Below, in pieces: positions 41,613 to 42,945 of a stretch of 64,000 nt of DNA (positions are counted from its first letter, which is position 1; each line of letters begins with the position of its first letter). The notes under the pieces are model-generated. The model was not told where the DNA came from. It did not search any database and was given only the letters and a program-made list of their open reading frames with translations. The DNA is from Stylophora pistillata (Eukaryota), in contig NW_019217854.1 in NCBI RefSeq assembly GCF_002571385.2, forward strand, positions 243,134 to 307,133, in the 5' to 3' direction. A program made the position numbers and the translations under genes.

Positions 41613-41897
41613 TAACCAATCATTGAAGCCCCGTTGAGATATCGCCCTACACAGTCCATTTCAAACGTAGAGCACCTTGCAGCACACACTGAACTGAGCT
41701 ATGACGCTTTAACAAACACGCCAAATAATGGCGACCATACCACTGACAAGGACCCAAGTGTCAGATCCCCCCCGGCAAACCTCACCCCGACTCGTCTCAA
41801 GTCGCTGCTGGAAAAACGTGCGTGTTTCAGCGTCCATACGTCACGTAACCCCACAACTTTTGTCATCGTGACCGGATACTCAGCACGTGTATGTATA

Positions 41898-42311
41898 CAT
41901 ATGATGCACGATCCTCGCAGTAGATAGCGCTATTTAAGCAATAGCGAAAAATCAGACCTGAAAAAAATCAGGCCTGTACGGGATTCGAACCACTGACCTC
42001 TGCGATACTAGTGCAGCGCTCTACCAATTGAGCTAACAAGCCAACTGGGAGCAGGCCGTTAAGTTGATTCGTAATAAACCCGTGAAAGTGATAAATGAGA
42101 TACAATGAAATATATGAAGTTCATATATTTTGTACTGCGGTATTAGATACATATGATGCACGATCCTCGCAGTAGAGGATCGTGCATCATTTTTTTCAGG
42201 TCTGATTTTTCGCTATTGCTTAAATAGCGCTATCTACTGCGAGGATCGTGCATCATATGTATCTAATACCGCAGTACAAATTATACGAACTTCATATATT
42301 TCATTGTATCT
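41898..42311 (-). mobile_element. tRNA-containing retroposed repeat: partial tandem (252-bp period) plus inverted arm, 14-bp TSD
   Basis: CATATGATGCACGATCCTCGCAGTA at 41898 and 42150; inverted copy 42190-42311; CACGTGTATGTATA at 41884-41897 and 42312-42325. Confidence 0.8.
41971..42042 (-). pseudogene. tRNA-Thr(AGT)-like cloverleaf inside the repeat
   Basis: Acceptor GGCTTGT/ACAGGCC and D-stem GCTC/GAGC pair; anticodon loop CTAGTAT; T-stem has two mismatches; followed by T7. Confidence 0.6.
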
Positions 42312-42945
42312 CACGTGTATGTATATAACAGACACCTCACGCATTTTTAGGATGGCTTGCGGATTTGTCAGAAAGTTAACTTCGGTCGGCGGCAGGCGTA
42401 AGAGGCTTAAAACTTTAACCAGAAATTGTACTTTTCAAAAATGTTTAGGCTCTGAACAAATGAACACAAAACTGTGGCAGCATTGTAGATCTTTTCCACA
42501 TTTAGAGATTTATTTTCGCAGAACAGTGGCATTGATTTCGCTCTCAGGAACAATGGGTTAAGTTTTAACTTTGTCATGTTTGTTTTATTCGTAGTTTATA
42601 CTCATCATTTAGTATGAAACAGCGGCGATTAGAACTTTGATACGTAGTTTTCAGTTTTCCGCATGCCGTTCTTTAACCGCACTGACTATACCAACCATAA
42701 AACTAGTTAAGACAAACAAAATATTTCCACTCCTCTTGCAAACCGTACATTATTTACAAAACTTCCTCATTGTGAATTATATGAAATATCCCTTGCGGTC
42801 ATTAAAGGTTTTACGACTCACTTAATATAAGAATAGTGGACAAGGAACTGTCCAAATATCACAACCTCAAATGAACTCCTGTTTACAGCTAGCGAAGGAT
42901 TGTACGTATTCTCGATCCCAAACCCATGGAAACTTCAAAACTACA

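Follow-up and report, generated by a model that had tools for sequence, protein, structure and literature searches.

The window analysed here, a 64,000-nt stretch of a Stylophora pistillata contig, carries at 41884..42325 a tandem insertion that bears a tRNA mimic and contains an inversion; that this is a real feature is confirmed. It belongs to a large, dispersed family whose ends and target sites point to mobilisation by the machinery of Penelope-like elements (PLEs). On balance, we favour a reading of the family as a young, high-copy, non-coding tandem element copied by a PLE from an RNA circle that would be cut by the tRNA-splicing machinery. The element works like a retrozyme or a non-autonomous PLE, yet it has no hammerhead and does not have the form of a SINE.

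The insertion in the window

The insert is bounded by a 14-bp target-site duplication (TSD), CACGTGTATGTATA, of which the window has exactly two copies, at 41884 and 42312, enclosing both arms, as an earlier note on this DNA had claimed. Its description there as just over one unit plus an inverted arm is borne out as well, the two arms being joined through a short fold-back piece (Table 1). The tRNA-like gene does lie inside the unit: it is called by both ARAGORN and Rfam, and there is family sequence on both sides of the gene and its run of seven T residues (T7). A unit length of 252 bp is correct for this copy, which has one extra T, but not as a family norm, the commonest unit being 251 bp. 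All four hairpins named in the earlier note are present in the predicted fold. Logan contigs of runs X15 and X16 cross both junctions of the insert with 0-1 differences, and may derive from the assembled individual; no empty site was found among the joints shown.

A second copy, previously placed at 22152 and said to have a long inversion with other breakpoints, is indeed inverted (22153-22447), but it is only the inner breakpoints that vary, the outer ends lying at two fixed sites (S1 and S2, below), and it has no TSD. A different tRNA-headed repeat at 4964-5022 is 75% alike over the tRNA part only.

Table 1. Positions of the insertion, its parts and related copies within the window.
Feature	Position	Strand	Called by
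Left TSD, 14 bp; last 3 letters common with the element end	41884..41897	+	
Left arm, 282 bp (one 252-bp unit + 30 bp); runs from unit position 118 to the unit end and on through 1-147; S1 (~146), a fixed site, is the outer end	41895..42176	-	
Hairpin just 3' of the tRNA; its loop contains the T7 run (41961-41967); likely Pol III terminator	41957..41972	-	
tRNA mimic; A and B boxes and acceptor, D and anticodon stems intact	41970..42042	-	ARAGORN, Rfam
Anticodon loop, a palindrome (tRNA 31-36), of which 32-35 would pair in the cross-copy helix	42007..42012	-	sequence, fold
Leader upstream of the tRNA; predicted pairing with tRNA 14-26 and 45-66	42043..42083	-	
Fold-back piece at the inversion junction, 16 bp	42175..42190	+	
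Right inverted arm, 125 bp, 98% identical; spans 75-198 of the unit; S2 (~198), a fixed site, is the outer end	42189..42313	+	
Right TSD, 14 bp; 2 letters overlap the element end	42312..42325	+	
Another inverted copy, with S2 as outer end of each arm; TSD not found	22153..22447		
Single short arm, ends at S1	12518..12597	+	
Older-subfamily fragments, two (33033-33122, 33413-33475), 80-83% identical	33033..33475	-	

The family and its units

An exact 26-mer of the tRNA part has 8,383 matches in the 398-Mb genome, and one from the body of subfamily A has 2,843. Copies are dispersed as arrays of 1-11 units, with more than 8,000 young tRNA copies in all, and 97 of 160 full monomers are identical, at 251 nt (unit numbering starts at the tRNA 5' end). 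Subfamily B, with a unit of 245-248 nt, has the same tRNA as A (0 of 73 positions differ) and a body in common with A at only 141 of 178 positions. The order of parts is kept in older families of this genome and in families from other coral metagenomes (loci that are mostly copies with insertions, the gap in the search pattern having been too long), with units of 246-264 nt, and so is the T7 hairpin 3' of the tRNA. There is no ORF in the element. Such copies will inflate coral tRNA gene counts and be annotated as SINEs.

The tRNA is a mimic: its best match to real tRNAs sampled from the genome is 48-51 of 73 letters (48 of 73 at best for the window copy), and only 3 of the 5 pairs of the T stem are present. 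A source tRNA was sought and not found, the similarity being spread over Phe, Thr and Ile genes; “Thr” is an anticodon reading only.

Ends and target sites

Starts and ends were mapped onto a circularised unit for 132 insertions: 41 top BLAST hits (a set that favours long arrays), 45 first-listed body hits (contigs 1-6), 43 first-listed tRNA hits (contigs 1-2) and 3 from the window. Ends beside N were excluded, and one or two loci may duplicate each other. Of 182 clean sense 3' ends, 162 lie within positions 140-153 (S1, peak at 146-147) or 189-206 (S2, peak at 196-198), windows that were drawn after the data had been seen and that cover 12.7% of the unit. The “permuted” unit of the earlier note is thus an apt description of the 5' ends, which are scattered, but not of the 3' ends, which use two sites about 50 nt apart.

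Among the 90 copies with both flanks clean, 57 have arms back-to-back, 32 are single-strand and 1 shows the opposite arrangement. The 57 inverted copies combine S1 with S2 in 44 cases, S2 with S2 in 2 and S1 with S1 in none, the remaining 11 having at least one other end. A TSD of at least 10 bp surrounds 39 of these 57, and is 12-14 bp long in 36 of the 39, compared with 1 of 32 non-inverted copies (control: 2 of 2,501 mismatched flank pairs); the TSDs are AT-rich, at 73% AT against 61% in the flanks. Inner 5' ends occur all round the unit and are slightly enriched at 51-75. The contention that the 5' end is not at the tRNA head, as it would be in an ordinary SINE, holds: inner ends fall within 10 nt of the tRNA +1 position in 9 of 134 cases (10.7 expected), and outer 5' ends in 1 of 39. 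No LINE-type, poly(A) or simple-repeat tail was seen at element ends. The mapping thus revealed neither a fixed tRNA-head 5' end with a LINE-type tail nor fixed terminal inverted repeats (TIRs); the inverted arms are not the latter because their ends and lengths differ.

At the inversion junctions of the family, many join positions appear by eye to be palindromic or paired in the RNA fold, which suggests annealing of two cDNAs there. Two single arms about 8.7 kb apart (L157, L158) have mirror-image inner flanks and possibly form one large inverted structure.

Comparison with the Penelope-like elements of the genome

Several near-identical PLE families with long reverse transcriptase (RT) ORFs are present in the genome, 2 of 3 long RT ORFs having a weak C-terminal GIY-YIG match, and young autonomous EN+ PLEs with similar TSDs co-occur with the element. 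The earlier note had taken partial tandems with inverted ends as hallmarks of PLE integration, and the same signature is found in these PLEs. Ends of family P1 cluster 129-137 (10 of 25) and 163-169 nt (12 of 25) after the ORF, some 33 nt apart, and those of family N1 at 256-268 (10 of 18) and 354-359 (6 of 18). Half of 12 inverted PLE loci have TSDs of 11-14 bp and the other 6 have none; those of the element are mostly 12-14 bp. A partial tandem with an inverted, 5'-truncated arm is found in 57 of the 90 clean-flank family copies, as for a non-autonomous PLE.

The literature offers the same combination. EN+ PLEs and the non-autonomous MRC1 share with the element partial tandems, an inverted 5'-truncated arm, two 3' end sites and AT-rich targets (PMC8557442, PMC11167929); PLEs are described with a 30-40 bp tail and non-autonomous forms (PMC8557442), and a PLE protein in vitro cuts both strands of AT-rich DNA and starts reverse transcription at two internal RNA sites (PMC11167929). 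Since its ends and TSDs match those of the genome's PLEs, the element was likely copied by a PLE reverse transcriptase and endonuclease, and to judge from the sequences mobilisation of the family by PLE machinery is very probable. The earlier note's interpretation is supported in this respect; the Pol III transcription and the circular RNA processed by tRNA enzymes that it also proposed gain a specific structural model (below) but no support from the RNA-seq reads. The S1-S2 spacing of about 50 nt, longer than the usual 30-40 nt PLE tail, counts against this reading. The element also differs from PLEs in having a tRNA module and in lacking an ORF, a hammerhead and any 3' sequence in common with sampled PLEs. 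The shared termini with an autonomous PLE that had been envisaged earlier were not found: six families were sampled, which we take to be Poseidon-like and Neptune-like, many PLE families and clades lying outside the sample. A search for distant TSDs gave no PLE-element chimera inside one TSD, and an element-PLE junction considered as a candidate chimera (L179) is a scaffold gap instead.

Two stretches of the window derive from PLEs themselves. That at 22757-23660 (+) is the 3' part of a very young family, 21 genomic sequences matching the full query at 99-100% identity; of the family's two end sites it uses the second, and a minimal hammerhead-like motif follows the ORF. That at 6802-7502 (-) is a decayed RT fragment of another PLE-like family with about 150 diverged relatives.

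The template

Both arms of an inverted copy were copied from one haplotype or template: they agree in subfamily in 57 of 57 cases, and in 29 gap-free copies they match at 81 of 87 diagnostic sites, against 51 expected (0 of 5,000 permutations). Of 68 arms reaching tRNA +1, 3 stop there, compared with 5.5 expected. One haplotype in both arms and the absence of a stop at +1 together favour a continuous template, circular or multimeric, while falling short of proof of a circle. Private variants occupy whole arrays in three loci (L152, in 7 of 7 units, L110 and L156); of 251 rare variants, 16 are in all units covering them, 7 in some and 228 in one unit only. Several arrays hold haplotype blocks or variants with a period of 2 or 3 units; these may reflect either genuine switches or artefacts of the assembly, which is gapped at many arrays. 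We consider it moderately probable that the template was circular.

In three stranded RNA-seq runs, whose RNA selection is not stated, 8,321-9,341 of 12.9 million reads mapped to the unit, about equally on both strands and with no sense-strand excess; a neighbouring gene confirms that the libraries are stranded. They come mostly from diverged copies (609 of 8,321 mapped reads are at least 99% alike), and their ends are loose at S1 and S2, with no sharp starts or ends. These reads look like host read-through and give no support to an abundant circle; retrozyme circles are abundant in vivo (PMC7229834).

The main alternative is that PLE machinery copied a linear template, either long read-through RNA of arrays or Pol III RNA with end-to-end jumps by the RT, in which case the tRNA would be a promoter only and neither circle nor splicing would be involved. 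This would fit the absence of a circle from the RNA data and the haplotype blocks and period-2 and period-3 variants within arrays, as well as two loci (L066, L141) in which one TSD encloses two arms separated by several hundred unrelated bases, possibly captured templates. There is also a precedent in MRC1-type non-autonomous PLEs, which have no hammerhead and form multicopy head-to-tail insertions (PMC8557442). The lack of a pile-up of ends at +1 and the private variants that occupy whole arrays speak against it, and pure read-through would be unable to lengthen arrays. Nor do A and B boxes need conserved acceptor and anticodon stems that change in pairs, or a fixed palindromic loop (see below). 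A linear template is in our view unlikely.

Alternatives to Penelope-type mobilisation

A tRNA SINE of the usual kind, mobilised by a LINE, inverted through twin priming and afterwards duplicated in tandem, would account for a tRNA-derived segment whose A and B boxes are intact and for the AT-rich TSDs, but is very improbable and already largely refuted by the end map: the fixed 5' head and the tail are both missing, TSD lengths have a narrow range, the T-run comes straight after the tRNA, and there are two fixed internal 3' ends, one per arm, whereas in L1 twin priming the second priming site is variable. Inverted arms, tandem arrays and many hairpins could also suggest a DNA-level element (a long-TIR MITE, or a Helitron-type or satellite unit spread via rolling-circle DNA); this is just as improbable, given arms unequal in length with different ends, a strict polarity (57 back-to-back against 1 opposite), 3' ends that are fixed where 5' ends are random, and a 12-14-bp TSD as in PLEs.

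RNA fold and a possible tRNA-splicing route

No hammerhead core is present on either strand of the unit, no other ribozyme was found, and tRNA is the sole Rfam hit in an array; as a positive control, the same Rfam library does detect a hammerhead retrozyme of 254 bp in this genome, whose sequence is unrelated. A search with a degenerate motif gave no result. The retrozyme (L362-L391) has its main 3' end at unit position 57 and inserts into (TA)n; (TA)n is also a frequent end of one PLE family (L256-L264), a candidate partner for the retrozyme.

Folding of the sense unit is strong (circular z -6.7, against -3.5 for the antisense). In the predicted fold, the leader pairs with both halves of the tRNA, giving a rod 20-27 kcal/mol below the fold with the unit's own cloverleaf, a preference that argues against processing of the monomer by RNase P or Z. 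Covariation, to which the earlier note had looked, did not emerge from RNAalifold on 18 copies (no net covariation term); the pair count on a one-copy fold is above shuffles and slid controls, the structure leaning toward that copy. Inspection by eye of other-coral loci shows paired changes in the acceptor and anticodon stems. The loop reads CCGG in 13 of 26 other-coral loci, CTAG in 1 and a sequence one transition away in 6; in 15 older copies of this genome it reads CCGG in 7 and CTGG in 6. A change from CCGG to CTAG is also the expected product of CpG decay, and a real tRNA-Thr(AGT) of this genome also reads CTAG.

The model that we favour, with a circular template, would run as follows. 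Pol III, which we infer to transcribe the element, would start at the tRNA of one unit, sometimes pass the first T-run and stop at the next, yielding an RNA of about 330 nt; host read-through RNA could serve instead. In this RNA, from +1 to the second T-run, the leader is predicted to hold the inner tRNA halves, and the outer ones, the 5' half of the first copy and the 3' half of the second, would make up one tRNA body. Positions 32-35 would pair with 35'-32' between 3-nt bulges (a bulge-helix-bulge, BHB), the intron then being exactly one unit (38 to 37'). TSEN may cut this precursor and RTCB close the circle, in place of the retrozyme hammerhead. A protein, putatively that of a PLE, would nick both target strands about 12-14 bp apart, the footprint of which is seen in the TSDs, and each target end would prime at an internal site of a single RNA, S1 for one end and S2 for the other. 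Both cDNAs would go a variable distance round the template and then be joined; the footprint here is the back-to-back arms of 0.1-11 units.

The predicted probability of the cross-copy helix is 0.27 in unit A and in the window copy, 0.09 in A2 and 0.72-0.90 in A3, B, B2 and B3. It is 0.00 in three non-palindromic loop mutants, 0.01 with CTGG and 0.96-0.98 with CCGG; for each of three units, 0 of 40 body shuffles matched the observed value, and the value for a genuine tRNA-Thr together with its native flank is 0.01. Among 14 older or other-coral units it is at least 0.2 in 6 and at most 0.03 in 8. In the commonest unit, the enforced pre-tRNA fold lies 6.6 kcal/mol above the minimum free energy. 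The T7 run should strongly terminate Pol III, so the splicing model needs it to be leaky. A full unit and a second tRNA in one arm are present in 24 of 88 sampled insertions; the window copy, with one tRNA, could not make a two-tRNA precursor. The fold program prefers a 6-bp helix, and fully paired helices lower splicing (PMC6614914); the predicted helix may be stronger than the route allows. In metazoan pre-tRNAs the proximal pair is C-G, the bulge has 3 nt and the distance to the 5' cut is 6 nt (PMC6614914), and the predicted geometry is compatible with the splicing rules given in PMC6614914 and PMC10485636. On this modelling, a route to the circle through TSEN and RTCB is quite possible, if somewhat short of likely. 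More tentative again is the complete proposal that the retroelement may be its own tRNA intron, in which tandem mimics with palindromic loops would form one pre-tRNA, TSEN and RTCB would free a circle, and a Penelope-like RT would copy it from two fixed sites.

Relation to known systems

Animal non-LTR retrozymes are the closest in plan: dispersed, non-coding tandems of about 250 bp with a highly self-paired fold and TSDs longer than 4 bp, for which PLE mobilisation and a circular intermediate closed by RtcB have been proposed (PMC7229834; bioRxiv 10.64898/2026.07.22.740005). The non-coding tandem units of the element are within the 150-450 bp of the retrozyme criterion, and its TSDs exceed 4 bp. 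Retrozymes carry a type I hammerhead in each unit, whereas the element has a tRNA mimic and a T-run instead, and its circle is putative; nor does its sequence resemble that of this genome's own retrozyme, which ends mainly at one site and targets (TA)n. The accessible text of the bioRxiv preprint (10.64898/2026.07.22.740005) makes no mention of tRNA.

Among described elements with a small-RNA promoter, Sm-alpha and TRIMp3 come closest. Schistosoma Sm-alpha is likewise a tRNA-derived, high-copy, SINE-like retroposon with an RNA-processing module, but it carries a hammerhead (PMC2770079) and the element does not. TRIMp3 Cassandra, Helenus and Ajax are also non-autonomous retroelements with an internal small-RNA promoter, and the Cassandra transcript spans one 5S copy to the next; these are, however, LTR elements with a PBS and PPT (PMC10886601), whereas the element has no internal non-repeat region and has PLE-type ends. 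The predicted route to the circle resembles that of tricRNAs, with a BHB-like motif at 37/38, TSEN and RtcB (PMC6614914), except that the mobile unit would itself be the intron and its circularisation would rebuild the tRNA sequence.

A tRNA-bearing, ribozyme-free dependant of PLEs is not described in the papers searched, although the supplements of the retrozyme preprint may list related families. If the favoured model is true, it would link tRNA splicing and Penelope-type retrotransposition, which are not connected in the papers found, and would extend the retrozyme plan to a ribozyme-free element. Even without a circle, thousands of young copies document PLE integration in vivo (a single template, a stagger of about 12-14 bp and a separate priming site for each of the two target ends), and an RNA of 250 nt offers a minimal substrate for PLE integration tests.

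Elsewhere in the window, long ORFs at 42946-43698, 48130-48894 and 52211-53077 have similar C-terminal halves and possibly form a small gene cluster; that at 42946-43698 is transcribed from the minus strand.
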